Made by a program: the position numbers and the translations under genes
The notes under the pieces: model-generated
Told to the model about the DNA's origin: nothing
Database searches by the model: none
The model's input: only the letters and a program-made list of their open reading frames with translations
Shown: positions 1,972 to 61,150 of the stretch, one piece after another
Position numbering within the stretch: position 1 is the stretch's first letter
How the letters are laid out: each line of letters opens with the position of its first letter
Origin: a virus
Strand: one strand, 5' to 3'
DNA: 64,000 nt
IMG/VR virus record: IMGVR_UViG_3300045988_180775

Positions 1972-2146
1972 TTTTTCATTTCTCCTTTTCGTGAATTATT
2001 AGGTGATATATAAAAGCCAGTATCCGCAAGGGATACTGACTGAACTTTCTTTATGTATGTGATACTTCCTTTGTATGGTCTCAGCATACCGGCGGATGAA
2101 GAAAACGCCTTATTCTCCTTTCAAGAACCCAAGAACCGAGGAACTT
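1972..2146 (-). promoter_or_regulatory. conserved intergenic cassette copy 1 (GAACC repeats, hairpin A, hairpin B, U tract, conserved TIR)
   Basis: Shares about 120 bp near-identity with six other intergenic copies. Hairpin B 2018-2038 (cagtatcc/ggatactg), hairpin A 2073-2089 (gtatg..catac), GAACC x3 at 2124-2144. Confidence 0.7.
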
Positions 2147-5487: not shown

Positions 5488-6266
5488 TTTTCTCCTTTAC
5501 CTTCTTCAAAAATGATTTTGGCTGCCTTGCGAAGCTCCGCGACCTTTTTCGCTTTATTTCCCGTGTCATCCAGGTCGAAAGTAAGGGCAGCATCCTTGAA
5601 CCGCGTACAGCCATTCAGAGCGTCATCCCAGAGCGCACCGCGTTCCTCCTGTGCCTTGCTGAGCAGCGCCGCCTTATCCGAAGACGCGGCGAGCTGCTTC
5701 TTCAGCGCGGGGAAATCGCGTTCGTCCATTTCGCAGGCGTTCGTATACTCGAAACGCTCATAGAGCGAATCAAGGTACTGGGTGGCTTTTTTTGTTAAGC
5801 CAAAACCCCTTACATAGACGTCTTTCCCGGCAGAATCGCTCAGGAAGCAGAGGCTCGGATTGGACTGCGCGGAGAATTCGTAGACCGCCTCGCAGACAGC
5901 CTGCAAATTTTCCATGCTTTCTTTACGATTGGGGACATCTTTCCCTTCCAGATGTTTGGTCAGGAACTCCTCCAAGCCTTTGCGCTCCTCAGACGGGAAT
6001 AACCATGTGGCTCGCCACGAATTCCGCAGTAAGACGGGGTAGACCGCGCCGCCGACGAGAATGGCGAATTCATCCGCCGCGTCATCTCCGAAGAACTCAA
6101 GAGCGCTTCTGAGCCACGGCAGCAAGGCAGAAGAAACTACATCTTCGGCGATATCCGCCGCTCGTGTTTCTTCCTGAATACCCTGTACGCAACGCGCCAT
6201 AATCGTGAGGTCGTAGATACTCTGCGGCTTTCCGATGTGCCACGCATCGAAGATTGTCATGCTCAT
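5484..6266 (-). CDS. hypothetical protein (260 aa)
   Basis: ORF. 4-nt overlap with downstream gene suggests operon. Confidence 0.6.
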   Translation of the reverse strand: MSMTIFDAWHIGKPQSIYDLTIMARCVQGIQEETRAADIAEDVVSSALLPWLRSALEFFGDDAADEFAILVGGAVYPVLLRNSWRATWLFPSEERKGLEEFLTKHLEGKDVPNRKESMENLQAVCEAVYEFSAQSNPSLCFLSDSAGKDVYVRGFGLTKKATQYLDSLYERFEYTNACEMDERDFPALKKQLAASSDKAALLSKAQEERGALWDDALNGCTRFKDAALTFDLDDTGNKAKKVAELRKAAKIIFEEGKGEK

Positions 6267-8210: not shown

Positions 8211-8381
8211 TTTTTAATTCTCCTTTTTTGAAATTTTTTTGATATATAAAAGCCAGCATCCGTATGGACGCTGACTGAATTTTCTTTGTGTTTGTGATAC
8301 TTCTTTTGTATGGTCTCAGCATACCGGCAGGCACGGAAAACTCCGCATTTTGCAAATTGGAACCTAAGAACCGAGGAACCT
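8211..8381 (-). promoter_or_regulatory. conserved intergenic cassette copy 2
   Basis: Hairpin B cagcatcc/ggacgctg at about 8256-8275, hairpin A 8309-8325, GGAACCTAAGAACCGAGGAACC at 8359-8380. Confidence 0.7.
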
Positions 8382-8404
8382 CAAATCTGGAGTGTGAAAA
8401 GACA

Positions 8405-8440
8405 AAAAGAAAAAGCGCCGCCCACAAAGGGGCGGCGCTC
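8405..8440 (-). terminator. rho-independent terminator (minus orientation)
   Basis: gcgccgccc-acaaag-gggcggcgc stem followed on minus strand by TTTTTCTTTTTGTCTTTT. Confidence 0.7.
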
Positions 8441-8444
8441 AGGT

Positions 8445-8657
8445 TTAAGACTTGGGAATGGCCTCCAGAAAGGGTTCGACCTTCCGGAACACCTTCTCAG
8501 AGCAGAGAACATTATTTCCGTTGCCAAGGTGCAGTTCCACGCGGTCGCCGATTCTGTTCCAGACCTTCTCCCCGTGCAGTGTATAGACGGGTAGGCTGCC
8601 GTATCTGCCGGCTTCCACGGTATGCAGCAGAGACGTCAAGTTCTTGATTTTATACAA
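8445..8657 (-). CDS. small hypothetical protein (70 aa)
   Basis: ORF directly followed by terminator. Confidence 0.45.
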   Translation of the reverse strand: MYKIKNLTSLLHTVEAGRYGSLPVYTLHGEKVWNRIGDRVELHLGNGNNVLCSEKVFRKVEPFLEAIPKS

Positions 8658-10014: not shown

Positions 10015-11446
10015 TCAGTTGTTGGGCTTCAGAATATCGGGTATCCAGTTTTCAGCAGATGGCCTGCGGAGACTCTCCGGCACGCAATCATAGAACGCTG
10101 AATTTTCCGCCACAGCCATGTCGATAATCCAGAAATCGTCACCATTCTGCATCACGTCGATGCTCCACTGGCCTTGCAGGTCAAGCGCCGGCAGGAATTC
10201 CCGAATGTGTTCCACCACGGAATCGACATTCTCATGGTAGCGCCGCATCAAGGTCGCTTCGTGACTTTTGAAAATCACATAATCGTGCATCTGATGCGGA
10301 CTGTTTGCGTCCGAGCATGAACCAAAGCGATTGAGCATAGTCTTCGGCTCCCAATAGGGAGAGACACCGATGACAGCATCGCTGTCACAGTCAACAAATA
10401 CGCGATATTCCGTATGAAGCGGCAAACCATGATAGATGCAGGGATTTCCCTCTTTATCCGGAATGAATTCCCGCACGACCCACTCATTTGTCGTCGAGAC
10501 CCCATAAATGCAGGGAAAGCTAAGGGGACCGGCCATCTGTAACGCTTGATGGTGGATGTAGAGCAAAATACTCGCCAAGCTCTCGAACCTCTTTTTCTCC
10601 GTGTACCCGGCAATTCCGAAAGTCGAACTTCGATGAATAGGTGCCGGTTTTCACGAAGTAATCCCGCTCGTCATTCAGACGAAATACAGCGTGCGCCCAG
10701 TTATCGACGATTTGGATGGTCGAAGGCGTTAGGCTGTGATAGTCCAGACGAGTCAGCTGTAAGAGCGTCAGGGGGACCTTGGCTATCGTCGTTGCCGGAA
10801 TCCGGAAGAATCCAGAATCCCGGTAGGCACTCACAAGCTCCGGGAACCAATGTCCGATGGAGTTGCGATTCTGCCCGATGATGCGGTAGGCCAGCGCATC
10901 AAGGTCAAGGATGTCCAGTCCCTGCCGAAAGCGGTCATACGCATCCCTACGGTCCTTCGGCGTCTTCCCGTTCTGCATCTTGTCGTAGTAGAACAGGAGC
11001 GCAGCTGAGGCAGTGATGTCAAGGTCTCTCTTCATCAGTTCCCCACTCAGCTGCGGTCGCAGCGAAGCTGGAATTCGCAGCAGGTCCTGATTGGTGACAG
11101 GAGCATTTTTCTCCGGTGCGTTGGAAAGCGATTTTTCAATTTTGTCTGTTTTTCCATCATAAGTGTAGGTCAGCGTCTGCCCGATAAGCTCCTTCACGAT
11201 GCGCTCCGTAAGAGCTTTCAGCTCTTCCGGGCTGTCGTCGCCGAGCCGCTCGTTTTTCGCCGCTGCCTGCCTGGAATTGACCTCAAAAATGCTTTCTGGC
11301 TCAGTCTGCAACGCAGCTTTGGAATATGCCTTCTCGAAGGCGTCCAGTGCATCAGGACTGACGCGCAGGATTTCCGCGATTCGGTCTCTGCTGATGTTGA
11401 ATTTCTGCGCGGATGCCTGAGCAAACAGATTGTCTAATCCAAACAT
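10015..11446 (-). pseudogene. ATP-grasp-like protein split by a frameshift near 10520-10580
   Basis: Two ORFs (10520..11446 and 10015..10578) overlap by about 58 nt in different frames. Upstream part ends ...DYFVKTGTYSSKFDFRNCRVHGEKEV and downstream part contains EYRVFVDCDSDAVIGVSPYW. Together these resemble one ATP-grasp fold. Confidence 0.45.
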
Positions 11447-12205: not shown

Positions 12206-12385
12206 TTTTCATTTCTCCTTTTTTGTGATGGTTATGTGATATATAAAAGCCAGCACCCACGCGGACGCTGACTGAACTTTCTTTATGTTTGTGATACTTC
12301 CTTTGTATGGTCTGAGCATACCGGCGGAAGTGGAAAATGCCACATTCACCTTCCAAGAACCTGAGAACCGAGGAACTGGAGAACT
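12206..12385 (-). promoter_or_regulatory. conserved intergenic cassette copy 3
   Basis: Hairpin B cagcacccacgcggacgctg, hairpin A gtatggtctgagcatac, GAACCTGAGAACCGAGGAACTGGAGAAC at 12358-12385. Confidence 0.7.
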
Positions 12386-15392: not shown

Positions 15393-15570
15393 TTTTTTCG
15401 TTTCTCCTTTTTGTTTATGAAATTTTTATATATAAAAGCCAGCATCCGCAACGGACGCTGACTGAACTTTCTTTGTGTTTGAGATACTTCTTTTGTATGA
15501 TTTCAGCATACCGGCAGAAGAGAAAAAATCACCTATTTCCTGATGGAGAACCTAAGAATATGAGAACTCG
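15393..15570 (-). promoter_or_regulatory. conserved intergenic cassette copy 4
   Basis: Hairpin B cagcatccgcaacggacgctg, hairpin A gtatgatttcagcatac (variant), GAGAACCTAAGAATATGAGAAC at 15545-15568. Confidence 0.65.
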
Positions 15571-17442: not shown

Positions 17443-17606
17443 TTCTCCTTTTTGTTTATGAATTTTTTATATATAAAAGCCAGCATCCGCAACGGACGCT
17501 GACTGAACTTTCTTTGTGTTTGAGATACTTCCTTTGTATGCTCTGAGCATACCGGCAAATATGGAAACACGCCTATTTTAATGTTGGGAACCTGAGAACC
17601 GAAGAA
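17443..17606 (-). promoter_or_regulatory. conserved intergenic cassette copy 5
   Basis: Near-identical to copy 4. GGGAACCTGAGAACCGAAGAATAC at 17586-17609. Confidence 0.7.
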
Positions 17607-17680
17607 TACATATCGTCACGCGCAATGTCCGCTTCACGCTGGCGGAACTGCTCGATTGGATTTAAGAAACGGAGAATAGC

Positions 17681-17713
17681 AAAAAAACGCCGCCCATCTG
17701 GGCGGCGTTTCTT
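17681..17713 (-). terminator. rho-independent terminator after sigma gene
   Basis: aaaaaaacgccgcccatctgggcggcgtttctt. On minus strand the stem is followed by TTTTTTT. Confidence 0.75.
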
Positions 17714-18680
17714 ATTCAAGAAAGTCCTGAAGCATCTTCCCTGCCTTTCCGTTGCGTAGCTTATCGAGTGTTTTATCTGTAACCTGACGGACACGCTCTC
17801 GCGTTAAGTCCATTTCGTCCCCGATTTCTTTGAGGGTATAAGCACAACCATCCTCCAATCCGAATCGTAAGCGAAGCACACAGGCGTCTCGTGCGGGCAT
17901 ATCGTGCAGGATTTTGTCCATCGTTTCCCATAGTGCCTTCCCTGACGTTGAAATTTCCGGGTTATCCCACTCGTTATGGCTTGGGATGAATTCCGAAAGC
18001 GGTGTGTTGGAATCGCTTGCGGCGTCCGAATTGACGGGCGCATCCAACGAGTCCGGCTTCCGGTACTGGAGCGAGTGTTGGATGATGCGCAGTTTTTTCT
18101 GCTGCTCCCTTTTTGAAAGGGAATCCCACGCATCCCCCTCCATGTATTTTGCGATTTCTAAAGGGTCATCACAAGGTAAGCCTTTTTGCTGCATTTGTTC
18201 TTTTGCATTATTGACGCTCCGCCTGCCCTCCGCAACATAGATGGGCTTGCGAATGGCTGGGTCCGTCGTGGCAAGTGCTCTTGTGATGTTTTGCCTTATC
18301 CAGAAGGTTGCGTAGGTGGAGAACTTCACATTCCTCGAAATGTCAAAAGAGTCGATGGAACGCATGAGGCCGATGTTGCCCTCCTGAATGAGGTCCATGA
18401 ACACCATAGAATCGGCTGAGTTTATATATTTCTTTGCGATGGACACAACAAGCCGAAGATTGCCCTCAACAACCTTATCTTTCGCCCGTCTTCCTGCTTC
18501 TATGGCCTTCATCAGGTCTTTCTCGATTTCGGGGTCAACTGCATTCCCACTCTCCTCGGCAATCACCCGCAGCGTTTCGAGCTGTTCGGCAGCGGCATTC
18601 CCCTTCTGCGCTTTTTCAATACAGCGATTCGCTTCTACCTGCGGCATAATGGGGATGCTGCCAATTTGGCTGAGATACAT
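17712..18680 (-). CDS. RNA polymerase sigma-70 family factor (regions 1.2, 2, 3, 4), element-encoded
   Basis: DLIQEGNIGLMRSIDSFDISRNVKFSTYATFWIRQNITRALA (region 2.1-2.4). YTLKEIGDEMDLTRERVRQVTDKTLDKLR (region 4.2 HTH). VAMYLSQIGSIPIMPQ (region 1.2). Track start 18884 is a TTG inside the promoter -35, so I trimmed to ATG 18680 (GTG 18686 also possible). Confidence 0.85.
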   Translation of the reverse strand: MYLSQIGSIPIMPQVEANRCIEKAQKGNAAAEQLETLRVIAEESGNAVDPEIEKDLMKAIEAGRRAKDKVVEGNLRLVVSIAKKYINSADSMVFMDLIQEGNIGLMRSIDSFDISRNVKFSTYATFWIRQNITRALATTDPAIRKPIYVAEGRRSVNNAKEQMQQKGLPCDDPLEIAKYMEGDAWDSLSKREQQKKLRIIQHSLQYRKPDSLDAPVNSDAASDSNTPLSEFIPSHNEWDNPEISTSGKALWETMDKILHDMPARDACVLRLRFGLEDGCAYTLKEIGDEMDLTRERVRQVTDKTLDKLRNGKAGKMLQDFLE

Positions 18681-18855
18681 CGCCACATGGTCGCCGATAT
18701 TTCCCGGCTGCTTCGCTTCGGTCTCCTGTTCATTCGAAGCTGCGATTTCTTCTGTTTCAGGCTGCTTTTCAATGGCTTCATAGGCAAGCGCACGGTCAGC
18801 GGCTAAATTACTGGTATTCGTGATGTCAACCACCCCCCCTTCATTGAATGCAGCA

Positions 18856-18884
18856 ATTATACCACACAATAGCTTACTTGTCAA
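18856..18884 (-). promoter_or_regulatory. sigma-A-type promoter (TTGACA-17-TGGTATAAT) upstream of sigma gene
   Basis: Minus strand TTGACAagtaagctattgtgTGgTATAAT. Member of a 7-copy promoter family. Confidence 0.65.
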
Positions 18885-19440: not shown

Positions 19441-19956
19441 TTATACCTCCAAAATTTCGATTCCGTACTTTTCCAACATAAGTTTGCGCTTCATGAGGTA
19501 CTTTTCGGTTCGTTTTCCCTTCGCGTCTTCCACGATACGCTCACCGTTGCGGAGATAGACGAAATCTGCCTTGTAGACCATTGGTCGAACCCGCTTGCCA
19601 TTTGGCCGTGTATAGCCCTCGACCAGCGTGAAGTCCTGCTGGAGCCGCAGGTCCTGGATTGCACCAACCTTGTACTGCAAATACAGTTCATCGAAGCGCC
19701 GTGCCTCCCGCTTGCTGGGGAATTTCACGGTTTCTCCATCCACCACGCGAATGACCTTTTTATTGCGATATTTGGATGGCTCAGCAGCGTCCGCTTCTTT
19801 CGGCTGTTTTTGCCTTTTCTGTGCTTCCGGCTGTTTTTTTGCTCGCTGCTGTTTCTGCTCGTCGAGCTTTGCACGCACCTGAATCTGTGCGGAAAGCGGC
19901 AGGCTATTGATGTCAATACCCACCTTCAGTTCCTCCGCCTGTTTGTGGCGCAGCAT
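19441..19956 (-). CDS. DUF1064-family phage protein (putative nuclease/resolvase-like)
   Basis: C-terminal YRNKKVIRVVDGETVKFPSKREARRFDELYL...DFTLVEGY...YKADFVYL...VEDAKG matches the DUF1064 pattern as I recall it. The K/Q-rich N-terminus may be over-called. Confidence 0.55.
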   Translation of the reverse strand: MLRHKQAEELKVGIDINSLPLSAQIQVRAKLDEQKQQRAKKQPEAQKRQKQPKEADAAEPSKYRNKKVIRVVDGETVKFPSKREARRFDELYLQYKVGAIQDLRLQQDFTLVEGYTRPNGKRVRPMVYKADFVYLRNGERIVEDAKGKRTEKYLMKRKLMLEKYGIEILEV

Positions 19957-20311
19957 TTTGGTTGCTTCCTTCTCGCAGCAGAATCAAATTCATGACCCTC
20001 CATACCGTCCAGATACACAGATGGCGAACTATGCTTCTGCTGGTGCCGTGCAGGTCGGCGATTTGCGAAAACGTCATTCTGTCACGAAAATACTTTTGGA
20101 CGATATCGCGGTTTCGCTCAGGAAGTGTGTCCAGCGCTTCATCGAACATCTCGTTAAAGCCCGGTGTAAATGAAATTTGATTCTTACCCCAGGCTGAAAT
20201 TTGATTTTTACACCAGGCAAAGGATGTATCGTACATAATGGCCGCCTTCCGCCACTCCTCCGGGGCGAACTCAGGCTTGTTAATCTTGTCTGTCGTTTGT
20301 TTCTTTGTCAT
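19913..20311 (-). CDS. small sigma-70 region-4-like HTH protein (132 aa)
   Basis: LPERNRDIVQKYFRDRMTFSQIADLHGTSRSIVRHL resembles sigma region 4/ECF HTH. Trimmed to ATG 20311 with RBS GGAAGGAGAAACAAAA. Contains a 24-bp tandem duplication (20171-20218). Confidence 0.45.
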   Translation of the reverse strand: MTKKQTTDKINKPEFAPEEWRKAAIMYDTSFAWCKNQISAWGKNQISFTPGFNEMFDEALDTLPERNRDIVQKYFRDRMTFSQIADLHGTSRSIVRHLCIWTVWRVMNLILLREGSNQNAAPQTGGGTEGGY

Positions 20312-21404
20312 TTTTGTTTCTCCTTCCAACAATCTCTCTTCGTGAGCTGCGCCACAGCATGAGCAGCATCTCGCTGACCGGTCTGGTTCGGTCCTTCCTC
20401 ACGGCTTTCCTCACGCATCGCAGATGCCCGCCGTCCGGGCAAAGCACACCGACGCCGTATGGCACAGTATCCTTCACCGCTTCGAAGACGTCTGCGGGCA
20501 TAACGTAGTAGTTGTAGTCCGCGATGAAGTTGTGCCCGTTAGGAGATTTGAAATCCTCCACAGAGGACTTGACCTCGTAGGCGTAGAAGTCCCCCTTCTC
20601 AATGCCGGAGGTCGAATTGTTGAGCGGCTGAAAGCGCATATAGTCCACGCGGATTTTGTGGTTCGTAGAGTAGTCGAATGTGACCTCTCTCGCCCAGTAG
20701 ATGCGTGGGTCGTTGCGCGGGTCGATGTATCGCTCCAGCATGGCAGAGAGCTGGCGAGTGTGTTCCTTCCGGGTGAAGGCATCACTCGTTTCCGGACAGA
20801 ATTGAGCTGGCTTTCCAAGGATGAAATGGAACGGCAGAGCCTTTTCCAGTACGTCGATAATATTCTGAAGGGTCCCCTGCCCGCATTGGCGCAGATTCTT
20901 CAGTTTGCCGCTCTCTATCAGTCGAACAACATCGCCGATACTTTGGGCACCACTGAACATAAGGCAGTTCTTGGTGCGAGTCGAGAAATTGAGGCACTGA
21001 AACGGAACAGAATCGCACAACTCCTCGATTTTTTTCCGGTTGCCATTCTCAATGGCTTCCTTCAAAGCAGAGGCGAGAGGGCTGCCTGCAAACCGGCGCA
21101 TTTCTTTCAGGATACCCCCCGCATATTTGGGGTGACGCAGCCTCCTTATGGCGAGGTCGAAGCAAGAGTGGAACTTGCCGATGTCAATTTCCAGTGCGTT
21201 TGCGCATTGTGTTGGTGTAAGACCGTCGCGGTAGCGTTTTAAGATAGCTTCCCGCTCCAACTCAGGGAATGTGGCGATGGCAGCGTCTACAGCTGCGTCG
21301 AAAGAGTCGGAGAACTCAGCACACGGCATACACAAGCAATCCTGCATCAAATTCTTTCGCCATTCTACTGACGAGCGAAGCAGGAAACGCTCCTCAGTGT
21401 TCAT
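20280..21404 (-). CDS. three-part protein: sigma region-4-like HTH, then RNAP alpha-CTD-like helix-hairpin-helix, then C-terminal PD-(D/E)xK-like domain
   Basis: EREAILKRYRDGLTPTQCANALEIDIGKFH (region-4-like). LNFSTRTKNCLMFSGAQSIGDVVRL...LKNLRQCGQGTLQNIIDVL (alpha-CTD-like). GDFYAYEVKSSVEDFK (D..E.K nuclease-like). Confidence 0.55.
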   Translation of the reverse strand: MNTEERFLLRSSVEWRKNLMQDCLCMPCAEFSDSFDAAVDAAIATFPELEREAILKRYRDGLTPTQCANALEIDIGKFHSCFDLAIRRLRHPKYAGGILKEMRRFAGSPLASALKEAIENGNRKKIEELCDSVPFQCLNFSTRTKNCLMFSGAQSIGDVVRLIESGKLKNLRQCGQGTLQNIIDVLEKALPFHFILGKPAQFCPETSDAFTRKEHTRQLSAMLERYIDPRNDPRIYWAREVTFDYSTNHKIRVDYMRFQPLNNSTSGIEKGDFYAYEVKSSVEDFKSPNGHNFIADYNYYVMPADVFEAVKDTVPYGVGVLCPDGGHLRCVRKAVRKDRTRPVSEMLLMLWRSSRREIVGRRNKNDKETNDRQD

Positions 21405-22198: not shown

Positions 22199-22204
22199 AA
22201 AAGC

Positions 22205-22296
22205 AGAAAGGCGATACCGATAAGCGGTCAGCCTAAGAGAATAGAGTCAAACGAAATGACCGTCTTCCTTTGGCGAGGGGCGGTCATTTTCGTTTG
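22205..22296 (+). ncRNA. candidate antisense small RNA (type I antitoxin-like), about 90 nt
   Basis: Starts about 7 nt after the -10 box. Ends at hairpin gaccgtcttcc-tttg-gcgaggggcggtc (G-U wobbles favour plus-strand folding) followed by ATTTTCGTTT. Its 3' end overlaps the 3' end of the convergent 28-aa peptide gene. Confidence 0.5.
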
Positions 22297-22370
22297 CAAA
22301 TCTGAACTATCAGACCCACAAGGCCGATGATAACAAGAGAATACGCAAAAAGCGATTCGTAAGTAACCAT
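22284..22370 (-). CDS. 28-aa hydrophobic peptide, Fst/Ldr-like candidate type I toxin
   Basis: Unannotated ORF ATG...TGA encoding MVTYESLFAYSLVIIGLVGLIVQICKRK (polar N-terminus, TM helix, KRK tail). SD GGAGGGAGGTGAT sits 4 nt before ATG and is buried in stem cacttccct/agggaggtg. Own promoter lies upstream. Confidence 0.5.
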   Translation of the reverse strand: MVTYESLFAYSLVIIGLVGLIVQICKRK

Positions 22371-22452
22371 TGGCATCACCTCCCTCCACAGGGAAGTGCC
22401 GACCGCCTACCGTATATGGTAACGCCTTTCTGGCTCCTTTTGGAGCATTGTA

Positions 22453-22481
22453 ATCTTACCAAAAAGGCCCCGCTTTGTCAA
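22453..22481 (-). promoter_or_regulatory. promoter for the 28-aa peptide mRNA (TTGACA-17-TAAGAT)
   Basis: Minus strand TTGACAaagcggggcctttttggTAAGATtacaat. About 76-nt structured leader. Confidence 0.45.
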
Positions 22482-22644
22482 TTTCCGCCGCCCACGGTTT
22501 ATCCGCAGGTGGTTATTTTTTTGCCTCGGCTGCTGCATGGGGAAGCCGCACCCAGCCGCCCTTGTGACGAACAAGCTGGATTTTCTTCATAGGAGGCTGG
22601 GCCGGAGTTTCCGGCGCACCCGCCCGCCATTCGGCGGGGTAAAG

Positions 22645-22983
22645 CTAAAGAGCAGCGTCCTGATTGACAGGACATTCGAGACTCATGTTTTTTCTCTTCT
22701 CACAGGACTCTGCCTGCGACCACAAGCTGTTTGGTAGATTGAGCACCGTTACGAGGACATCCCCTGCAAACAGATAGACGTGCCGGTGATATACTCGAAT
22801 ATTGTTGATGGTTTTGTTTTTGAAGCGGATGGATGCAAGGTATCCATTCAGGTGGCCTCTGGTCTCCGAGTGCTTCACGCCAAAGTCAAAGGCTTTCTGT
22901 GCATTGCGCACGGCTGCTCTTTTGCCGAGACCAGCACGCTGTTTTGTACGCTTCCTCGCGTGTTTACTTACCTGCGCTGACAT
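22645..22983 (-). CDS. basic hypothetical protein (112 aa), doubtful
   Basis: Track ORF trimmed to ATG 22983 (MSAQVSKHARKRTK...). 20-nt out-of-frame overlap with upstream gene. Confidence 0.3.
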   Translation of the reverse strand: MSAQVSKHARKRTKQRAGLGKRAAVRNAQKAFDFGVKHSETRGHLNGYLASIRFKNKTINNIRVYHRHVYLFAGDVLVTVLNLPNSLWSQAESCEKRKNMSLECPVNQDAAL

Positions 22984-25897: not shown

Positions 25898-25926
25898 ATT
25901 ATACCACACATTAGCTTGATTGTCAA
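25898..25926 (-). promoter_or_regulatory. sigma-A-type promoter (TTGACA-17-TGGTATAAT) for helicase
   Basis: Minus strand TTGACAatcaagctaatgtgTGgTATAAT. Confidence 0.65.
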
Positions 25927-30474: not shown

Positions 30475-30503
30475 ATTATACCACACATTAGCTTAAAAGT
30501 CAA
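30475..30503 (-). promoter_or_regulatory. sigma-A-type promoter (TTGACT-17-TGGTATAAT) for ung
   Basis: Minus strand TTGACTtttaagctaatgtgTGgTATAAT. Confidence 0.65.
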
Positions 30504-30536: not shown

Positions 30537-31076
30537 TCACGCGAAGTACCACTCCCCATTGCTGAATTCAACGAACTCTTCCTCGGCGGCGAAATGCACC
30601 TCCAAAAAAAGCTCTCCTTCGCCATTATCTACGACCACCACATCGTAGTCGTCGTCTCCATAGTAGGAGATGATATCGTGATGCTTATTCGCTTTCTCGT
30701 CGATGATGCACATATCGCGCGGCACCTTGTAGAGCAACGCTCCATCCTTCCGCCGCGTACAGCACGCGGCATCGTAGAAAAGGAAAGTCTCTCTGTTGTC
30801 TTCGTCGGCGTTTTTGAATTCCCTAATACCGTTCTTTTCTTTCTCCGCAAGTTCGTTAAGCAAAGCTACGACCTTCAGCGTTTTTACATTCAACATAGAG
30901 TTCCTCCTCAGTAATTCGTACAGCATCCCATAGAGATACTCCGGCGGGCTGCATTTCTCCTGCTCCCAGTTTCGGACTGTTCCCAGAGGAATTCCGGTGG
31001 TAAGGGCAAATTCACGCTGGGACAGCTTAAAATCCTGACGCTGCTTTCGGATGCGGTTCTGCTCGTGTTCAATCAT
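30537..31076 (-). CDS. XRE-family (Cro/CI-type HTH) transcriptional regulator
   Basis: LSQREFALTTGIPLGTVRNWEQEK helix-turn-helix. Trimmed to ATG 31076. Confidence 0.7.
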   Translation of the reverse strand: MIEHEQNRIRKQRQDFKLSQREFALTTGIPLGTVRNWEQEKCSPPEYLYGMLYELLRRNSMLNVKTLKVVALLNELAEKEKNGIREFKNADEDNRETFLFYDAACCTRRKDGALLYKVPRDMCIIDEKANKHHDIISYYGDDDYDVVVVDNGEGELFLEVHFAAEEEFVEFSNGEWYFA

Positions 31077-31128
31077 ACTTATTTCAACCACCCTTAATAA
31101 TTTGTAGTGCGCAATCTAAGTATTTTTC

Positions 31129-32776: not shown

Positions 32777-32805
32777 ATTATACCACATAACACCTTGCAA
32801 GTCAA
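32777..32805 (-). promoter_or_regulatory. sigma-A-type promoter (TTGACT-17-TGGTATAAT) for flotillin gene
   Basis: Minus strand TTGACTtgcaaggtgttatgTGgTATAAT. Confidence 0.65.
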
Positions 32806-42218: not shown

Positions 42219-43472
42219 TCAGGCGTTGGGGAAATTCATGGGGCCTTGGGTGCCGATGCACCGGCACAGAATCATCCCGTTGTCCAAATAATTAAGAACC
42301 TTCAGCCGGACGGTCGAACCACGCGGAGGCTCGCTCCCAAGGAATTTCGCAGGCATATTGTTCACGAGTACGGGTAAATCGTACATCTTGATATACGCCA
42401 ACACATTGATATTCCCAGGCTGTTTCTTACTCGCAGCCACGGAAGATACGATGCCAAACACGATGGAGCCGATTGGAAGAGCGCTGCGCATTTGCTTCGC
42501 ACGCTCCAACTCAGGCTGCTTACAGTTCACCTCGACGATGTGGTGGCCGTCTTTCTCTTTGATGATTTGCTCTACCTGAACCATAATTTCCTGCCCCACC
42601 TTGTATTTGGTTCTCGCGTCAACAAGGTACTCGAAAGTCAGGGCGTGGAGCGGCACCCGCGTATCGACTCCGCCAACCACAACGGCAATGCTGTCGCGTG
42701 CCACAGAGGTAATCTGAGCACGAACAAAATCGCCTTCCTGAATGCGCGGGCCATCACCGTCAGGTCGGTCTCCGTAATTTGTCTCCTCAATAATGTCGAG
42801 CGCAGCCTTACGGGACGCGACAATGACATAAGCCGGAACTCCGGCTTCAGCATCGGTGCTTTCATCGACCTGGATAGTCGTAATCACCATCGGCACATTC
42901 AGGGAATACAGCTTTGCCGCCATCGTAGCGCAGCGGTTGACGTACTCTTCACGACCGGCCTTAGTTTCCATATTTACCGTCGCCATATCAATGGGATTCT
43001 TCTGGTAGAACTCGTCAAAGGGAATGGAAACCTTGTAGCGGCCCTCTACGAGCGCGATAATCATGACACAGGGAACTTCCGAATCCACATCGTTTCGCTG
43101 CTCGATATGAGAGACGAGACCATTTACGATGCTGTGGTTTTTAGCTGCGACTGTCAATGAAGAAAGTCCGATAAGAAACTCCTGATAGGCACGGACAGAC
43201 TCACTTCTTTCCGCTCTCCGCCGTCTTGCCTCCCTCAGTACATCAGCACGGGTAGGCTTCCCTTTGGGAGCGGTTTCCTCCGCGCCGGACTGCTCAGGTT
43301 CGTTTCCATCAAGCCCCTCAAAGAGCGCCTGCATCTCTGCGTCCTCTTCATTGGGGGCCTGCGTTTCAACGCTCTCTGCGGTGGAGGATTGGACGTTGCT
43401 CTGTTCCTCAGTGGGAGCCTGCACTTCAGCGTTTTCCTCGATTGAAGCAGTTGCTCCATCTTTTTTGACCAT
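42219..43472 (-). CDS. S1-domain RNA-binding protein (two S1-like repeats) with acidic N-terminus
   Basis: GDFVRAQITSVARDSIAVVVGGVDTRVPLHALTFEY...VGQEIMVQVEQI (S1-like) and a second GSIVFGIVSSV...GSTVRLKVLNYL repeat. Confidence 0.55.
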   Translation of the reverse strand: MVKKDGATASIEENAEVQAPTEEQSNVQSSTAESVETQAPNEEDAEMQALFEGLDGNEPEQSGAEETAPKGKPTRADVLREARRRRAERSESVRAYQEFLIGLSSLTVAAKNHSIVNGLVSHIEQRNDVDSEVPCVMIIALVEGRYKVSIPFDEFYQKNPIDMATVNMETKAGREEYVNRCATMAAKLYSLNVPMVITTIQVDESTDAEAGVPAYVIVASRKAALDIIEETNYGDRPDGDGPRIQEGDFVRAQITSVARDSIAVVVGGVDTRVPLHALTFEYLVDARTKYKVGQEIMVQVEQIIKEKDGHHIVEVNCKQPELERAKQMRSALPIGSIVFGIVSSVAASKKQPGNINVLAYIKMYDLPVLVNNMPAKFLGSEPPRGSTVRLKVLNYLDNGMILCRCIGTQGPMNFPNA

Positions 43473-44176: not shown

Positions 44177-44205
44177 TATTATACCACACTTTATCTTATT
44201 TGTAA
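44177..44205 (-). promoter_or_regulatory. sigma-A-type promoter (TTTACA-17-TGGTATAAT) for signal peptidase
   Basis: Minus strand TTTACAaataagataaagtgTGgTATAAT. Confidence 0.6.
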
Positions 44206-44293
44206 AGTATCGAATGAAGTGACCTTACATACAACGGCGCAAGCAAAAAGGCACGTCAACGAAATGTTGGCGTGCCTGTGGCCTGTGCTGATA

Positions 44294-49352: not shown

Positions 49353-51998
49353 TTACTTTCGCTTATCGCGCAAGGGACCTACGCGAGGAGGCTTCTTGCC
49401 CTTGCCCTGTTCCTCCGGCTTGGGGCCTCCTCCGCCATTGCGGGAGCCGTCATCCCGCTGCCTGCCTTCGCTGCGCGGGGCAGATTCCGGAGAAGAAGGT
49501 GTCTGCGGCGTACCGGAAGCCGGCGTACCGGACGACTGGTCGTTGATGACTTCGATACGCTGTGTAGGCGTATAGCTGGGAGGCTGATTGATGATGGTGT
49601 TTTGTGTGACGGTCCGAGGTTCACCGTCGCTTCCGCCCGAAGCAGCACCCGCATCTCTGGCGGGAGGTTCGTAAGAGTGGGCTTCTCCACCGCCGGAGGG
49701 AGTCTCGTAAGTACGACGCTCACCGCCTGCGGCACCACCTGCGTCTTCGGAACGACGCTCATAAGTGTGCGTCTCTCCACCGCCGGAAGGAGTCTCGTGA
49801 GTACGGGAACTTTCTGTTCCTCTGCCGGTATTCGGCAGAGAATCGTCCGTATGAGGCTCATACCGCGTACTTGCAGCAATATTCTGTGCGACAGGTCTGC
49901 CCTGCTCAAATCTGGGGTTCTCGATATCCTGAAGTCCGCCGCCTTCCTGAACAGCGCGAGACCAATCTTCGACGCTGCCCTGAGTCTGGTCCACATCCAT
50001 TGCTCTCGCATAGAAAATCTCACCGTTCTTCGAGGGAATCTGCTGCATCTGAGCCTGCTGGATAGAGGACATCTGCTTATAGGCAGTCTCGTCCATGATT
50101 TCCAGACGCTTGAACTTCGGGACTTCCGTTCCGTCCTCATAGGTGCGGCCGGAACTGCCGGGAACGGCGCAGAGACCGCTGACCACTCGGCCGCCGCCCC
50201 ACTGATTCCCTGCTTCATCAGTGTATAGGGGCTGTGTCTCTGCACGGATATTGCTGAGGCGACTGGCCGCCGCCGTGCCGGACTGGTCGCCTACGCGGAG
50301 ATTTTCTCCGAAAGTATTGGAGAGTGCTGCCTGCGCAAGCGTATCGTTGCCAGAAATATTCTTTCTGTCGTTGAAAAGGACTTCCTGCGCGACAACAGGC
50401 GAGCCATGCGCGAGCGTATTCGCAAGCGTGCTCTGATACGCATTGGTCGAGTCTTCCTGCTGCGCCTTCATATTCTCCAGATTTTCCGGAGATAGGTTGG
50501 CGGGATTGACGTCATGGAACTCCGTGTCCGGAGCAAAATCAGTCAATTCGGTCTTATCAAAGTTATCCTGAATATGCGCGGCCACAGCGCTGTCCGGGCC
50601 AACCAGCATTCCGTCCTTGTCATCCCCAAACGGAAACGAGGTCATCAGGCCAGCATTTTTGGCTTCCGGAGACAGTTCGAAATTGGCTTTGTTGTCGCCG
50701 TCGGGTCCAATCAAGGCACAACCTGCACCGTTTGTCTCCAAATTCATGCGGGCAAACTGCTGTGCAGACATACCCATCTTCTTGGCATTGTCCTGGAAAT
50801 CCTGTTGACCTGTACGGCCTCCACCGTTCTCTCCGACGGGTCCGCTCTGCCGCTGGACCTTCTCCTGCCATGCGGCGGCACTTTCCTGAGAGCGTTTTGC
50901 CGTTGCCACAGCGTTTGCATTGCGGGGGGTGAACTGGTTCATGCCCCAGTCTCCAGCAGGAGTTTTCGCGTAATCCCTGGCCGCCTTTCTCGCGGCACGG
51001 CTGTCCGCCGGACTATTCCCCTGAGCGAATGCGTCATTGTACGCTCGCTTCCCACGAAAGAGATTGCCGAACGTGCTGTTGTTGCCGGAAAGAGCGTCTC
51101 CTTTGGATGCCTTCTGAGCTGCACCGCCAAATGCGTGCTTGAGTGCATAGCCGACTGCCATAGCGTTTCCAAGAATGCCTTCTCCGGTCGTCGGAACACC
51201 GATGCCGAGTTGCTGCATATAGGAATCCACCCGCTGTGCGATTTTGCACATGGTCAGGCACATAATCAGCTTTGCAATAACGGAGTTTCCTCCGCTCGTT
51301 GAACTGAGTGCGGAAATAGACAGTTTGGTAAAGAGTACGGAGAGCGACATCAGGGCGCATTCACCGCAGAACATTCCTACCCATCGTTGAAATACAGTAG
51401 CCGTCGCGGCAGAGGACAGGAACGGGTAAATGAGAGGCGATGTATAAACAAGAACGCCGACCATCAGGTATCGCTCAACACACTCCAGCAACAGCTTGAT
51501 AAGGTTCCATGCAATCGCAATGATTAGAACGAGTGAGACAAGCAGCCCAGCAGCTCCGACACCTACGGCAACGGACAAGTCTGTTAAGAGACTGTCGGGT
51601 ATGCCAAAATGATGGGTGATAGCGTCAGACCCAACAAAGATGTCGTATGGGACTTTCGCGATTCCCACAACTGCGGAAAGAAGATAGCCGCCGAGATAAA
51701 TGAGAACCGTGGCGAGTGCGGCTCGAACAAGGATTTGCGTAGGAGTATCCTGCGCTTTGGACAGGCTGCCAAGGAATACTTTGAACAAATTGACAGCCGC
51801 AATGGCAAGAACCAATCCCAGCCCGCAGGCTTGTAGAATTGCATAGGCTGTACCGAAATATGGAAAATTCTGATAAAGGTCTCCCAGGGTAAAGTTCAGG
51901 AGACCCCCATCGTTTCCATTGCCGAAGAAGAAATTGACAAACAACTGCAATCCTTCTCCGACCGCACTGAGCAGCCAGGAAAATATAGTTTCGAGCAT
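49353..51998 (-). CDS. VirB6/TcpH-like polytopic conjugation channel protein with Gly/Pro-rich repetitive C-terminus
   Basis: At least 8 predicted TM helices in the first about 360 aa. C-terminal low-complexity repeats (TPSGGGETHTYERR / TPSGGGEAHSYEPP). Confidence 0.6.
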   Translation of the reverse strand: MLETIFSWLLSAVGEGLQLFVNFFFGNGNDGGLLNFTLGDLYQNFPYFGTAYAILQACGLGLVLAIAAVNLFKVFLGSLSKAQDTPTQILVRAALATVLIYLGGYLLSAVVGIAKVPYDIFVGSDAITHHFGIPDSLLTDLSVAVGVGAAGLLVSLVLIIAIAWNLIKLLLECVERYLMVGVLVYTSPLIYPFLSSAATATVFQRWVGMFCGECALMSLSVLFTKLSISALSSTSGGNSVIAKLIMCLTMCKIAQRVDSYMQQLGIGVPTTGEGILGNAMAVGYALKHAFGGAAQKASKGDALSGNNSTFGNLFRGKRAYNDAFAQGNSPADSRAARKAARDYAKTPAGDWGMNQFTPRNANAVATAKRSQESAAAWQEKVQRQSGPVGENGGGRTGQQDFQDNAKKMGMSAQQFARMNLETNGAGCALIGPDGDNKANFELSPEAKNAGLMTSFPFGDDKDGMLVGPDSAVAAHIQDNFDKTELTDFAPDTEFHDVNPANLSPENLENMKAQQEDSTNAYQSTLANTLAHGSPVVAQEVLFNDRKNISGNDTLAQAALSNTFGENLRVGDQSGTAAASRLSNIRAETQPLYTDEAGNQWGGGRVVSGLCAVPGSSGRTYEDGTEVPKFKRLEIMDETAYKQMSSIQQAQMQQIPSKNGEIFYARAMDVDQTQGSVEDWSRAVQEGGGLQDIENPRFEQGRPVAQNIAASTRYEPHTDDSLPNTGRGTESSRTHETPSGGGETHTYERRSEDAGGAAGGERRTYETPSGGGEAHSYEPPARDAGAASGGSDGEPRTVTQNTIINQPPSYTPTQRIEVINDQSSGTPASGTPQTPSSPESAPRSEGRQRDDGSRNGGGGPKPEEQGKGKKPPRVGPLRDKRK

Positions 51999-56558: not shown

Positions 56559-56750
56559 TTTTTCTGATTCTCCTTACTTGTTATTTTTTGATTTATATAA
56601 AAGCCTGCGCCCGTTGGGTGCAGACTGAACTTTCATTATGTTTGTGATACTTCCTTTGTATGGTCTCAGCATACCGACCTTTTTCTCGCTTACAGAATTG
56701 CGCTGTGCAGGAATACAGGTTCTTAGGAATAGAAGTACCTAAGAACCAAA
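56559..56750 (-). promoter_or_regulatory. conserved intergenic cassette copy 6 (contains perfect 10-bp palindrome)
   Basis: Hairpin B ctgcgccc/gggtgcag (entirely different arm sequence, pairing preserved). Hairpin A gtatggtctcagcatac. GGTTCTTAGG-N10-CCTAAGAACC at 56718-56747. Confidence 0.7.
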
Positions 56751-56763
56751 GAAGGGCAAAAAG

Positions 56764-56788
56764 AAATCCGGGCCAGAAGGCCCGGATT
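56764..56788 (-). terminator. rho-independent terminator after VWA gene
   Basis: aaatccgggcc-agaa-ggcccggattt. On minus strand the stem is followed by CTTTTTGCCC. Confidence 0.65.
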
Positions 56789-56791
56789 ATC

Positions 56792-58933
56792 TCAAATATT
56801 GCGCAGAATCCTCTTCTTCACCATCCCTGTGAGCATCTTCGGAAATTTGCTCAGGTCGGTGATGTCGAGAAAGCCGTCACCGTAAATTGCCTGGATGTGC
56901 TCCTTGTCGTTGCCAATAGCTGCCGCAAAAACCTCGATACCGTTCCGTCGTGCGGATTTCACGATATTCTGGATATCTGCTCTGGCACTACTGCCGGAAT
57001 AGTTTCCGTCATTAGGCTGTCCATCGCTGATGACAAACATCAGCTTGACCTCCTCCGGTCTCTTTGCAAGAAGGCCAACGGAGGCTGCGATGGCAGCGCC
57101 ATCACGGTTACAGCCCCCTGTGCTCAGTTTGGCAAGCCGGAAGGCATCCTGCTTCCCGATGGCATCAAAGCGGGAGAACACATAGTATTCGGCACATCCC
57201 CTTGTCTGGGTATTGTGGCCGGCAACCATGACTGGAATGCCCAGTCCCGTCGCAAAGTCATAGAGCAGCATGGCCGCCCGCATTGCGGAGTTCATCCGTG
57301 CGCCCTGCATGGAGCCGGACATATCAACCAAAACGCTGACCGCCATAGACGGATAGTCCTGCGGCAGCTTCTTGCTGGCATAGAACTTCTGGTCCGGACG
57401 ATAGGCATTCTTGATTTCAAGACGGTTGCCAATGATGCGGTGATGAAGGATAGAACCCTGCTGGATATCAGCCAGAGCTTCCCGAATGAGTTTCTGAAGC
57501 CTGCGGGAATATCCCTTCAGGTCAGCCATCTGCCGCTCATACAGCTTTTTGTCCTGCTCTGTAACGCCTAAGATGCGATGGGGCCTGATATGGCCTCGAT
57601 GCGTGGGGCCAAGCTCCAACTGGGGGATTTCTGCCATCAGGTCGGACGTAATGTCCGCCTCCAGCTTTTCCTCCGCCTTCTGGTCGCTGATGCCCCGTGC
57701 AATAGCTTCCAAGGCCTCTTTGATTTGCTTGTCCGTCCCACTCGTATTCGCCGAAGCCTTCGTTTGGGGGGAAGTTTTCTGTCCGCCTTGCGCCTGCTGA
57801 CCCTTTTGGGCCTGCTTGCGATTTGCGGAAGCAACTTTGGACGTGGACTGGTTCTGCGGGGCGGCGTTCGCACCGGTATTCGATGCGGTCTGAGCAAGGC
57901 CGTTTACAACAGCCTGAATAGCAGCGGCAGAATGATTCATCGACTGAGTGTTGCCGGAGCTGTTCGGATTCCCGCTTCCAGGATTTCCGTTCGAGCCGGT
58001 CTGCCCGTCGCTGGAATCGCCGTTGCTGTTGCTCTGGGGATTTCCCGCTCCCGTCTGATTCTGTTGCTGTTCCGCTTCATCCAGGGCCTCTTTGATGATG
58101 GGCCACATGATAAGAAAGATTTCGTTGATTTGCGTAAAACGATATGCAACGTCATCTGTCCATCTGGCCTGACTCAAGGGCTTTGCCATGTCAATGACCA
58201 TCTTCATGATGTCGTTGTCACGCACGCACTGTTCAAGGTCTCTTGCGAAGACATCCTCGAATCGGGCAAACTCAAGCATCAGGGCATAGAGCTTTTGCAG
58301 CTTGGTTGCCTTATCATTTGCGAGGATGTTTTCCGCATAATCGAAACTGCGGAACAGGGCCTCACGCGATGTTGCGATTCCCTTTTCCACTATGCCGCCG
58401 AACTCGTCGATGATTTTGCCTTCATCGTGCGGGTCATCAATGGTGTTGGTCACATCGTTGAAAATCTGCTGAAACAGTGGCCGGTACGCACTGTTCTGAA
58501 GCGCGTCCTTCATTTCAGTCAATGCGTCAACCTCTGCCTGAGTCTTTGGCACCGGCAGTTCTCCGTAGAACTCTCCGGCCTTGATTTTATCAATGGCCTT
58601 CTGCTCCTCTGCAAAATCGCAATAAATGATATGTGCAATTTCGTGGAAATGGATACCCAGCAGAGCCGTAAACTTGGCATAGATGTCATTGTACGCCTCC
58701 GTGATGGTATTTTCAGGTACGAGATACTCCTTCTTTCCGTCCGTCCAGCCTGGTGCAATGCCTGTCGGCAGAATTGTCAGGGACAGTCGCTTAGTGATGC
58801 CGCAATGCCGCAACAGCGTCTCCCCCATCTTTTGCAGATAGCTGGAAAACTCAGCGGAGTGGAAGATTTCTTCGGAACTCAAGTTCTTGCGCTCTTCAGA
58901 ACTCAGCTTCCTGAGCTGGTGTTCGTATTTCAT
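56792..58933 (-). CDS. VWA-domain protein (MIDAS DxSxS) with N-terminal HExxH motif; CobT-like partner of AAA+ ATPase
   Basis: VLVDMSGSMQGARMNSAMRAAMLL (VWA MIDAS). FHEIAHIIYCDF (HExxH). Gln/Gly/Asn-rich linker. Confidence 0.7.
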   Translation of the reverse strand: MKYEHQLRKLSSEERKNLSSEEIFHSAEFSSYLQKMGETLLRHCGITKRLSLTILPTGIAPGWTDGKKEYLVPENTITEAYNDIYAKFTALLGIHFHEIAHIIYCDFAEEQKAIDKIKAGEFYGELPVPKTQAEVDALTEMKDALQNSAYRPLFQQIFNDVTNTIDDPHDEGKIIDEFGGIVEKGIATSREALFRSFDYAENILANDKATKLQKLYALMLEFARFEDVFARDLEQCVRDNDIMKMVIDMAKPLSQARWTDDVAYRFTQINEIFLIMWPIIKEALDEAEQQQNQTGAGNPQSNSNGDSSDGQTGSNGNPGSGNPNSSGNTQSMNHSAAAIQAVVNGLAQTASNTGANAAPQNQSTSKVASANRKQAQKGQQAQGGQKTSPQTKASANTSGTDKQIKEALEAIARGISDQKAEEKLEADITSDLMAEIPQLELGPTHRGHIRPHRILGVTEQDKKLYERQMADLKGYSRRLQKLIREALADIQQGSILHHRIIGNRLEIKNAYRPDQKFYASKKLPQDYPSMAVSVLVDMSGSMQGARMNSAMRAAMLLYDFATGLGIPVMVAGHNTQTRGCAEYYVFSRFDAIGKQDAFRLAKLSTGGCNRDGAAIAASVGLLAKRPEEVKLMFVISDGQPNDGNYSGSSARADIQNIVKSARRNGIEVFAAAIGNDKEHIQAIYGDGFLDITDLSKFPKMLTGMVKKRILRNI

Positions 58934-60959: not shown

Positions 60960-61150
60960 TTTTTCATTTCTCCTTTTTGTTTTGTGTGATTTGGGATATA
61001 TAAAAAGCCAGTATCCGTAAAGGATGCTGACTGAACTTTCTTTATGTTTGCGATACTTCTTTTGTATGGTCACAGCATACCGGCCTTTTTGCCATTTGCA
61101 GAATTGTGATAAACAGGAATACAGGTTCCTGAGTTCCGAGGTGCCTGAGT
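60960..61150 (-). promoter_or_regulatory. conserved intergenic cassette copy 7 (GGTTCC motif in inverted orientation)
   Basis: Hairpin B cagtatcc/ggatgctg, hairpin A gtatggtcacagcatac. CAGGAATACAGGTTCCTGAGTTCCGAGG at 61114-61141, shared with copy 6. Confidence 0.7.

Follow-up and report, generated by a model that had tools for sequence, protein, structure and literature searches.

Control of transcription by partition proteins is already known for plasmids. In the IncP plasmid RK2, KorB is a large helix-turn-helix protein of the ParB type which recognizes a 13-bp palindrome and no phased short repeats; its operators are placed before many operons of a conjugative element, some of them upstream of the -35 hexamer, as in the layout proposed below. 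Phased short repeats are bound by MetJ at the chromosomal met genes. These metboxes are palindromic AGACGTCT units overlapping the promoters, a corepressor is needed, and each of the two to five tandem 8-bp units receives one ribbon-helix-helix dimer with cooperative contacts between neighbours. Sites of a closely similar kind are described for two small partition proteins. ParG of TP228 recognizes ACTC boxes of 4 bp, in direct and inverted orientation and with regular 4-bp spacers; each box takes one dimer, and binding requires more than one box (PMC3130281). The repeats recognized by the omega protein of pSM19035 are 7 bp long, occur in direct or inverted orientation and overlap three promoters, among them the one of its own parA; omega acts as a global repressor as well as the centromere protein (PMC9499535).

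The present work concerns a stretch of DNA of 64,000 nt (hereafter the window), which is part of a conjugative element. Its genes code for a VirB4 of the CD1110 family, a coupling protein, PrgI-like and pilin-like proteins and a CHAP/lysozyme hydrolase, together with an RpoD-like sigma factor, an ERF recombinase, a UDG and a PcrA-like helicase, and nearly all its genes are on the minus strand. Seven cassettes of the window each carry an array of GTTC-type repeats upstream of an operon. Compared with the O_F/parH site of TP228 (type Ib), these arrays have the same 8-bp register, made of a 4-bp core and a 4-bp spacer, and the same mixture of orientations; in both systems an array also lies upstream of a parA-type operon, in which a small partner with a flexible N-terminal tail is encoded after the ATPase gene. 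They differ by the core, which is GTTC and not ACTC, by spacers that are not AT-rich, and by their short length (2-5 units) and their dispersal at the promoters of more than 20 accessory operons. Moreover, the partner is here about twice as long and of putative fold, and the host is a Gram-positive gut anaerobe. The comparison with the omega (ParB) sites of pSM19035/inc18 gives a similar picture: short contiguous repeats in either orientation, located at or adjoining several promoters including that of parA (delta), in a Firmicute host. However, the omega repeats are WATCACW heptads (7 bp) whereas the units are here 8-bp GTTC units, three promoters are regulated there against dozens here, and the cassette arrays are further upstream, at about -70 to -47 of promoters without -35. 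As for MetJ, the tandem 8-bp units are common to both systems, but metboxes are palindromic and overlap the promoters.

Anatomy of the repeat arrays

Read on the minus strand, a cassette contains the intrinsic terminator of the preceding operon and then the GTTC-type repeats, which are followed by a semi-variable stretch of about 33 nt and by a conserved core of about 95 nt starting at yGGTATGCT. Thereafter come a strongly covarying hairpin and TTTTATATA, and then the operon, whose first gene is preceded by a ribosome-binding site. Most of the genes driven by the cassettes have no Pfam match. The positions of these features are given in Table 1.

Table 1. Repeat arrays and neighbouring features of the seven cassettes, in window coordinates
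Feature	Position	Strand	Sequence or remark
Cassette cores, copies 1 to 7	2061-2091, 8296-8326, 12293-12323, 15483-15513, 17524-17554, 56646-56676, 61052-61082		
Copy 1 unit array	2125..2144	-	3 units: AAGTTCCT CGGTTCTT GGGTTCTT
Copy 2 unit array	8360..8379	-	3 units: AGGTTCCT CGGTTCTT AGGTTCCA
Copy 3 unit array	12357..12384	-	4 units: CAGTTCTC CAGTTCCT CGGTTCTC AGGTTCTT
Copy 4 unit array	15548..15567	-	3 units: GAGTTCTC ATATTCTT AGGTTCTC
Copy 5 unit array	17588..17607	-	3 units: GTATTCTT CGGTTCTC AGGTTCCC
Copy 6 unit array	56711..56754	-	5 units: (CCCTTCTT) TGGTTCTT AGGTACTT CTATTCCT AAGAACCT GTATTCCT
Copy 6 cores, in register (n=5)	56711..56754	-	GTTC, GTAC, ATTC, GAAC (inverted), ATTC; spans the palindrome 56718-56747
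Copy 7 unit array	61117..61144	-	4 units: AGGCACCT CGGAACTC AGGAACCT GTATTCCT; two inverted, one degenerate, proximal unit direct
Intrinsic terminator of the operon upstream of copy 6 (VWA-domain gene, 56792-58933)	56765..56788	-	immediately upstream of the copy 6 array
Array-to-(-10) spacer, copy 6	56675..56710	-	A-rich stretch ending in near-invariant RAAT (~-39 to -36); no -35 hexamer
Assigned -10 TATGCT, copy 6	56668..56673	-	within invariant yGGTATGCT; from invariance in 31 types and from divergent types
Equivalent -10 hexamers, copies 7 to 1	61074-61079, 17546-17551, 15505-15510, 12315-12320, 8318-8323, 2083-2088	-	copy 6 in the row above
Conserved leader, copy 6	56599..56667	-	CATACAAAGGAAGTATCACA...TTCAG; ends in covarying hairpin 56603-56625 and TTTT, intrinsic-terminator-like
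Ribosome-binding site and start codon, copy 6	RBS 56574, ATG 56558	-	downstream of the leader hairpin

A first-pass annotation of the window had reported GGTTC-type repeats in every cassette. This was borne out in 7/7 cases, and the sequences and coordinates given were correct. All seven arrays are on the minus (coding) strand and consist of 3-5 adjoining 8-bp units, each composed of a 4-bp core (GTTC, ATTC or inverted GAAC) and a 4-bp spacer. Copies 1 to 5 had been described as three direct repeats at 8-bp phase, of which the plus-strand sequence GGAACCTAAGAACCGAGGAAC of copy 2 (8360-8380) is an example; the phasing is right, but copy 3 contains a fourth unit. In copy 7, the motif was said to be in the opposite orientation (GTTCCTGAGTTCCGAGGTGC, plus strand, 61125-61144). 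Inverted units are indeed found there, but the promoter-proximal unit is still direct. The same arrangement is seen in copy 6: in both copies the proximal unit is a direct ATTC, and inversion (GAAC) is seen in one or two of the other units. These inverted cores fill the same 4-bp slots as GTTC, and the register is therefore kept. In copy 6, the units generate a perfect inverted repeat with 10-bp arms set 10 nt apart, GGTTCTTAGGAATAGAAGTACCTAAGAACC on the plus strand (56718-56747).

The pattern GTTC-N4-GTTC-N4-RTTC, with at most one mismatch, gave 10 matches in the window, where 0.69 would be expected; eight of the ten are inside the seven cassettes. Together with an 8-bp periodicity above that of shuffled sequences (see below), this confirms that the spacing is conserved beyond chance. 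Perfect inverted repeats of at least 10 bp, on the other hand, are no rarity in the window (16 seen vs 1.1 expected), most of them being terminators. Another repeated feature of the window, at 49633-49805, consists of two tandem 83-nt repeats (76% identical) inside an 881-aa open reading frame (49353-51998); it is a coding repeat in a protein of the T4SS region.

The inverted cores of copies 6 and 7 bear on a possible role of LexA. The LexA box of Firmicutes, or Cheo-box, has the consensus CGAAC-N4-GTTCG, and the pairs found, among the seven copies, only in copy 6 (AGAACCTGTATTCC) and copy 7 (GGAACCTGTATTCC) match GAAC-N4-GTTC at 7/8 positions, with an N4 that varies among relatives. If GAAC-N4-ATTC were a Cheo-box-like SOS operator in these two copies, the other repeats would be neutral remnants of cassette duplication. 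We consider this explanation scarcely tenable. The pair, at about -62 to -49, has no overlap with the promoter and lacks the C/G that flank the box, and the direct repeats of copies 1 to 5 and of most cassette types would not fit a LexA dimer. In addition, the direct units are constrained, as indicated by the selection pattern described in the following section.

Conservation and promoter context of the arrays

Pattern scans detected the cassette in one genome, that of Oscillospiraceae bacterium CM18GR_63 (contig JAWQDX010000001.1, over about 240-376 kb), in several IMG/VR contigs, including one of 136 kb, and in many human-gut metagenome contigs. The relatives amount to 246 copies with 109 distinct upstream sequences, which fall into about 31 types. 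No match was obtained in the plasmid and phage collections that are curated. When GGTTC-N3-GGTTC and GTATRCT placed before different leaders were looked for in a collection scan, this family and chance matches only were returned, and a literature search on the motif strings yielded unrelated primers only.

Across the ~31 types, the two promoter-proximal units are near-invariant and the third is moderately conserved, and no conservation was found further upstream. The information-content logo anchored on the proximal unit reads GtTCtC.gGTTCTCAG|GTTCC. The self-match of the -80 to -46 region in the 31 types was 0.51 at lag 8 and 0.46 at lag 16, compared with a maximum of 0.32 in shuffles, and the same lag analysis of the neighbouring spacer did not give a self-similarity peak of this kind. 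Close variants of a same type were then compared for polymorphism, which affected 2/228 cells in the GTTC cores vs 109/1235 at the other positions (Fisher p=1.8e-6), the variable positions including the 4-bp spacers between the cores. This is an 8-bp periodic footprint of purifying selection. The perfect palindrome of copy 6 was found in only one of the eight sequence variants of that cassette and in 3/16 copies, the other variants reading GGTTCTTGGG or AGTTCTTGGG. Selection therefore does not act on the palindrome as such, which arises from the use of units in both orientations.

The first-pass annotation had also concluded that the repeats are a regulator site on DNA and not a transcribed motif, with the palindrome as one of its supports. 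The palindrome has to be withdrawn from this argument, and the conclusion is maintained on other grounds. The units lie between the terminator of the upstream operon and the promoter, that is outside the transcript; they are inverted in register; in the consensus fold they are unpaired, unlike the leader hairpin; and the selection acting on them is periodic. No family was found for the cassette or the repeats in an Rfam search. Position between terminator and promoter, occurrence in both orientations, lack of pairing and lack of an Rfam family all indicate a DNA-level site, and the arrays are thus predicted to be protein-binding sites on double-stranded DNA.

No canonical sigma-70-type promoter was found in the cassettes, the best -35 match being 3/6 or fewer in nearly all types. 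A hexamer TAT[GAT][CA]T is nevertheless present in 31/31 types; its T, A, T and final T are always kept, and it reads TATACT, TATTCT or TATGAT in some of them. A divergent cassette type (L028, L050, L078), in which three units are kept, has TTGAAA-N16-TATGAT, and in a distant relative (L204) this position is taken by TTGACT-N17-TATTAT; about 21 nt further on comes the same AAAGAAGTAT leader, with a hairpin, TTTTTTATATATA and a ribosome-binding site after it. Because these natural variants place canonical -35/-10 pairs there, TATGCT was assigned as the -10: the cassette promoter consists of an invariant TATGCT -10 without -35. Relative to this promoter, the core of the proximal unit starts at -52 +/- 1 in all 31 types (-52/-53 in the window).

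This assignment bears on the possibility that the units are themselves a promoter element. GGAAC resembles the -35 of ECF sigma factors and a near-invariant RAAT is found 10-11 nt after the proximal unit, so that a sigma factor of an alternative or split kind (ECF-like or restricted to region 4) could use the units as its -35-like element, with the conserved AAT as -10. We consider this reading highly improbable, and it is largely refuted by the following observations: the A at -11 is absent in about half of the types, AAT is lacking in two abundant types and in the divergent type, most types have GGTTC on the sense strand, an ECF sigma is absent and the element sigma is SigA-like in regions 2.4/4.2, and the distant and divergent relatives put their canonical -35/-10 pairs at TATGCT. 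The specific pairing of GGTTC as -35 with AAT as -10 was rejected on the unconserved -11 A, the abundant types without AAT and the variants that place canonical elements elsewhere. An ECF promoter, suggested by this likeness of GGAAC in the first-pass annotation, does not hold for the window copies either, since the sense strand is GGTTC in 5/7 of them, no CGT-type -10 is found at 16-17 bp, and the only sigma factor is RpoD-like.

The element sigma (window 17712-18884, minus strand; NCBIfam RpoD, 1e-67) has SigA-like 2.4/4.2 residues and an N-terminal extension of about 130 aa. It had been listed among the candidate binders of the repeats; as a specific recogniser it was rejected, since its regions 2.4 and 4.2 match SigA and five consensus promoters of the window could be its targets. 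These near-consensus promoters, TTGACA-N17-TGTGGTATAAT on the minus strand (18856-18884, 25898-25926, 30475-30503, 32777-32805 and 44178-44206), precede the sigma gene, the helicase gene, the UDG and flotillin-like genes and the signal peptidase/T4SS genes. Judged from its residues, the element sigma would fit these five promoters, and it might serve for host-independent housekeeping transcription. None of these sigma-A-type promoters carries GTTC units, so that the regulon defined by the units is selective.

Downstream of the promoter, the conserved leader with its hairpin and a short U-run before the ribosome-binding site is present in all seven cassettes and resembles a promoter-proximal terminator; as such, it would imply attenuation or antitermination. 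Seven pairs of the hairpin show compensatory changes in the consensus fold. The leader matched no Rfam family and an alternative pairing was looked for and not found; in one divergent cassette type, an invariant GAAGTATC pairs with a downstream GATACTTC. A leader peptide starting at the ATG in GGTATGCT was ruled out by a stop at codon 3 in copy 7. A single-stranded-DNA (Frpo-like) promoter on the transferred strand was also rejected, because the G.U pairs which the hairpin keeps on the sense strand would turn into A.C mismatches on the template strand. The conjugation cluster contains the gene of a 417-aa protein with an S1 RNA-binding domain (window 42219-43472, minus strand), a putative actor on the conserved leaders. 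At 8400-8481 (minus strand), a sub-threshold Rfam match to suhB/mmgR (37.9 bits vs a gathering score of 41, E=3e-4) overlaps the terminator that precedes copy 2 and is probably a terminator-driven false positive. Finally, the region 22200-22960, about 750 bp without convincing open reading frame, contains GC-rich structured sequence and a promoter, TTGACA-N17-TAAGAT, near 22490 (minus strand) and is conserved in one relative (L199); it may be a non-coding RNA or a regulatory switch region.

Units at parA and other promoters and the candidate binding protein

In related loci, the same units are also found outside the cassettes. Upstream of parA in this same element, TGGAACCT GAGAACCC ACATTCTT TTACTCTT GAGTTCTT adjoins the -35 (TTGACA) of a consensus promoter, and the parA arrays mix both core orientations in register. 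These units are present in L001 and in 11 other loci of the same element family, as well as in the diverged loci L202/L203 and L204. Four in-register GAAC/GTTC cores were counted at the parA promoters of each of these three lineages (P<5e-5, 2e-4 and 4e-4 vs shuffles). The identity of ParA was confirmed by Pfam, and a gene coding for a partner protein is always located directly 3' of parA. Homologues of the partner are 46% and 33% identical, and their parA promoters carry GAAC/GTTC cores at 8-bp phase. The parA and partner genes are absent from the 64,000-nt window, where a Pfam scan of the small open reading frames revealed no ribbon-helix-helix protein; they are on the same contigs as window-type cassettes, the partner gene being about 30-40 kb beyond the window.

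On the strength of the analogy with ParG and omega, we propose that the arrays may be operators through which a ParG/omega-like partition protein exerts global regulation, the putative binder being the 153-aa partner of ParA (P0022); we give this proposal about an even chance of being correct. The view of the first-pass annotation that the arrays are regulator sites is supported, and the partner is a better founded candidate than those named there, because its own promoter carries the same units. The type Ib features found here are the contiguous 7-8 bp register, the in-register inversion and the presence of the same repeats at the parA-partner promoter; the position of the candidate protein directly after a Walker-type ParA and its size also fit. 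The partner contains a conserved N-terminal peptide, a low-complexity linker and a C-terminal segment, VKRSYFMSGDLILALEERGIREKRKGGSGELSAIVREALREYL. Its profile matches to Pfam RHH_1 (E=0.095) and NCBIfam ORF56 (E=0.035) are weak and confined to the last helix (helix B), as is the match obtained by hhalign with an omega sequence (probability 11%). Two runs of AlphaFold gave low-confidence models (pLDDT 54-61) with two C-terminal helices and no strand. A Foldseek search with the partner model gave no match, and PDB sequence searches with the partner, the region-4-like and the alpha-CTD-like proteins gave weak or no matches. On this weak signature, the ribbon-helix-helix fold of the partner is putative.

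The arrays could instead be activator sites at which another helix-turn-helix regulator of the element, the XRE protein (30537-31091) or a 132-aa sigma-region-4-like protein (19913-20311), recruits RNA polymerase. Such genes exist in the window, and the promoter, devoid of -35, is downstream of the array. Furthermore, the units GTTCTCA and GTTCTTA resemble the GTTCTYT motif of SinR of Bacillus subtilis, a protein of the XRE family, and the copy number and orientation of this motif vary at its target promoters (PMC3163267). The window units match 5-6/7 positions of the motif; however, SinR sites have no fixed 8-bp register and prefer inverted pairs, and no SinR-like protein was identified in the window. 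The helix-turn-helix of the XRE protein scores weakly as MqsA-like and not as SinR-like (E=3.6e-6, below cut-off). The MqsA operator AACCT-N3-AGGTT was itself rejected: the units contain the AGGTT half-site, yet the palindrome occurs in no cassette. Moreover, with an 8-bp register, consecutive sites do not share one face of the helix, an unusual arrangement for helix-turn-helix dimers, and the same arrays at the parA promoters of three lineages would be left unexplained. The XRE regulator and two region-4-like proteins had been put forward as binders in the first-pass annotation. The recognition helix of the 132-aa protein is TSRSIVRHLCI vs ISGSRVRQLRV in elements with identical units; the helix varies and the units do not, and this candidate is not supported. 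The second region-4-like candidate, a 374-aa protein (20280-21404, minus strand), combines a sigma-region-4-like helix-turn-helix, a domain resembling the alpha-CTD of RNA polymerase and a sce7726-like C-terminal part. It is not supported either, being missing from relatives with identical cassettes; in L199-L201 it is replaced by several small open reading frames. Taken together, these observations leave a fairly low probability to the helix-turn-helix activators, and some other protein of the element or of the host could also recognize the GTTC cores.

The operator arrays bound by ParG and omega also function as centromeres, three such sites being present in pSM19035 (PMC3130281, PMC9499535). 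As the arrays are spread over the whole element, they could be mainly dispersed parS-like sites for segregation, with little effect on transcription. This is quite unlikely: the position relative to the -10 is fixed within 1 bp in 31/31 types, which a centromere does not need, and most arrays have 2-4 units, whereas the omega system needs at least four contiguous repeats for full activation of ParA (PMC9499535). Mixed arrays of 7-8 units also exist in related loci. One of them (L007, minus strand, ~6000-6080), AGAACCTG AGAATTCA GGAATTAA AGAATTTG AGAATCTC AGTTCAAA AGTTCCAA followed by the palindrome TGTTTCACATGAAACA, is upstream of an uncharacterised gene, and similar arrays are present in L080, L090, L141, L179 and others. 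Long arrays of this type could be the main centromere or a strong operator.

A further location of the units was found in relatives at an RNase H-like gene, where two inverted GAACC units stand directly after the -10, over the start site of a consensus promoter. This is a typical repressor position. In the loci concerned (L012, minus orientation, near 11100, and L126), the units are followed by the palindrome GTATTCTCAAGAATAC.

Mode of regulation and significance

If the partner protein is the binder, one dimer would occupy each core and neighbouring dimers would bind cooperatively, which would explain why the register is 8 bp, why at least two units are needed and why inverted units are tolerated. 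Like ParG and omega, the partner would have a C-terminal domain of ribbon-helix-helix-like type, joined by a disordered linker to a conserved N-terminal peptide. By analogy with KorB of RK2, ParG of TP228 and omega of pSM19035, it would autoregulate parA and set the expression of many array-bearing accessory operons, and repression once the partner protein has accumulated would be the most likely effect. ParG and omega are known as repressors. With this precedent and the RNase H promoter, repression or feedback is favoured by a narrow margin. The missing -35 of the cassette promoters counts against repression, since this is the anatomy expected of activator-dependent promoters; the cassette arrays end about 11 bp upstream of the place expected for a -35. 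That the partner is an activator, which would switch on more than 20 -35-less promoters, each with the same ~70-nt leader and terminator, seems unlikely to us. In that case, the dosage of the partition protein, possibly with an antitermination step, would time an accessory/establishment regulon after transfer, a regulatory architecture that is not described for ribbon-helix-helix partition proteins.

The element is an uncharacterised, plasmid-like conjugative element of about 136 kb, common in human-gut Oscillospiraceae metagenomes. Should the partner bind the arrays as proposed, recognition in the manner of ParG and omega, by short, phased and orientation-free boxes, would be extended to Clostridia and to a far larger set of promoters. 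Taken as one shared operator, the GTTC arrays define a regulon of more than 20 operons and name a candidate regulator for it, which gives a handle on the coordination of the maintenance, transfer and accessory genes of this element.
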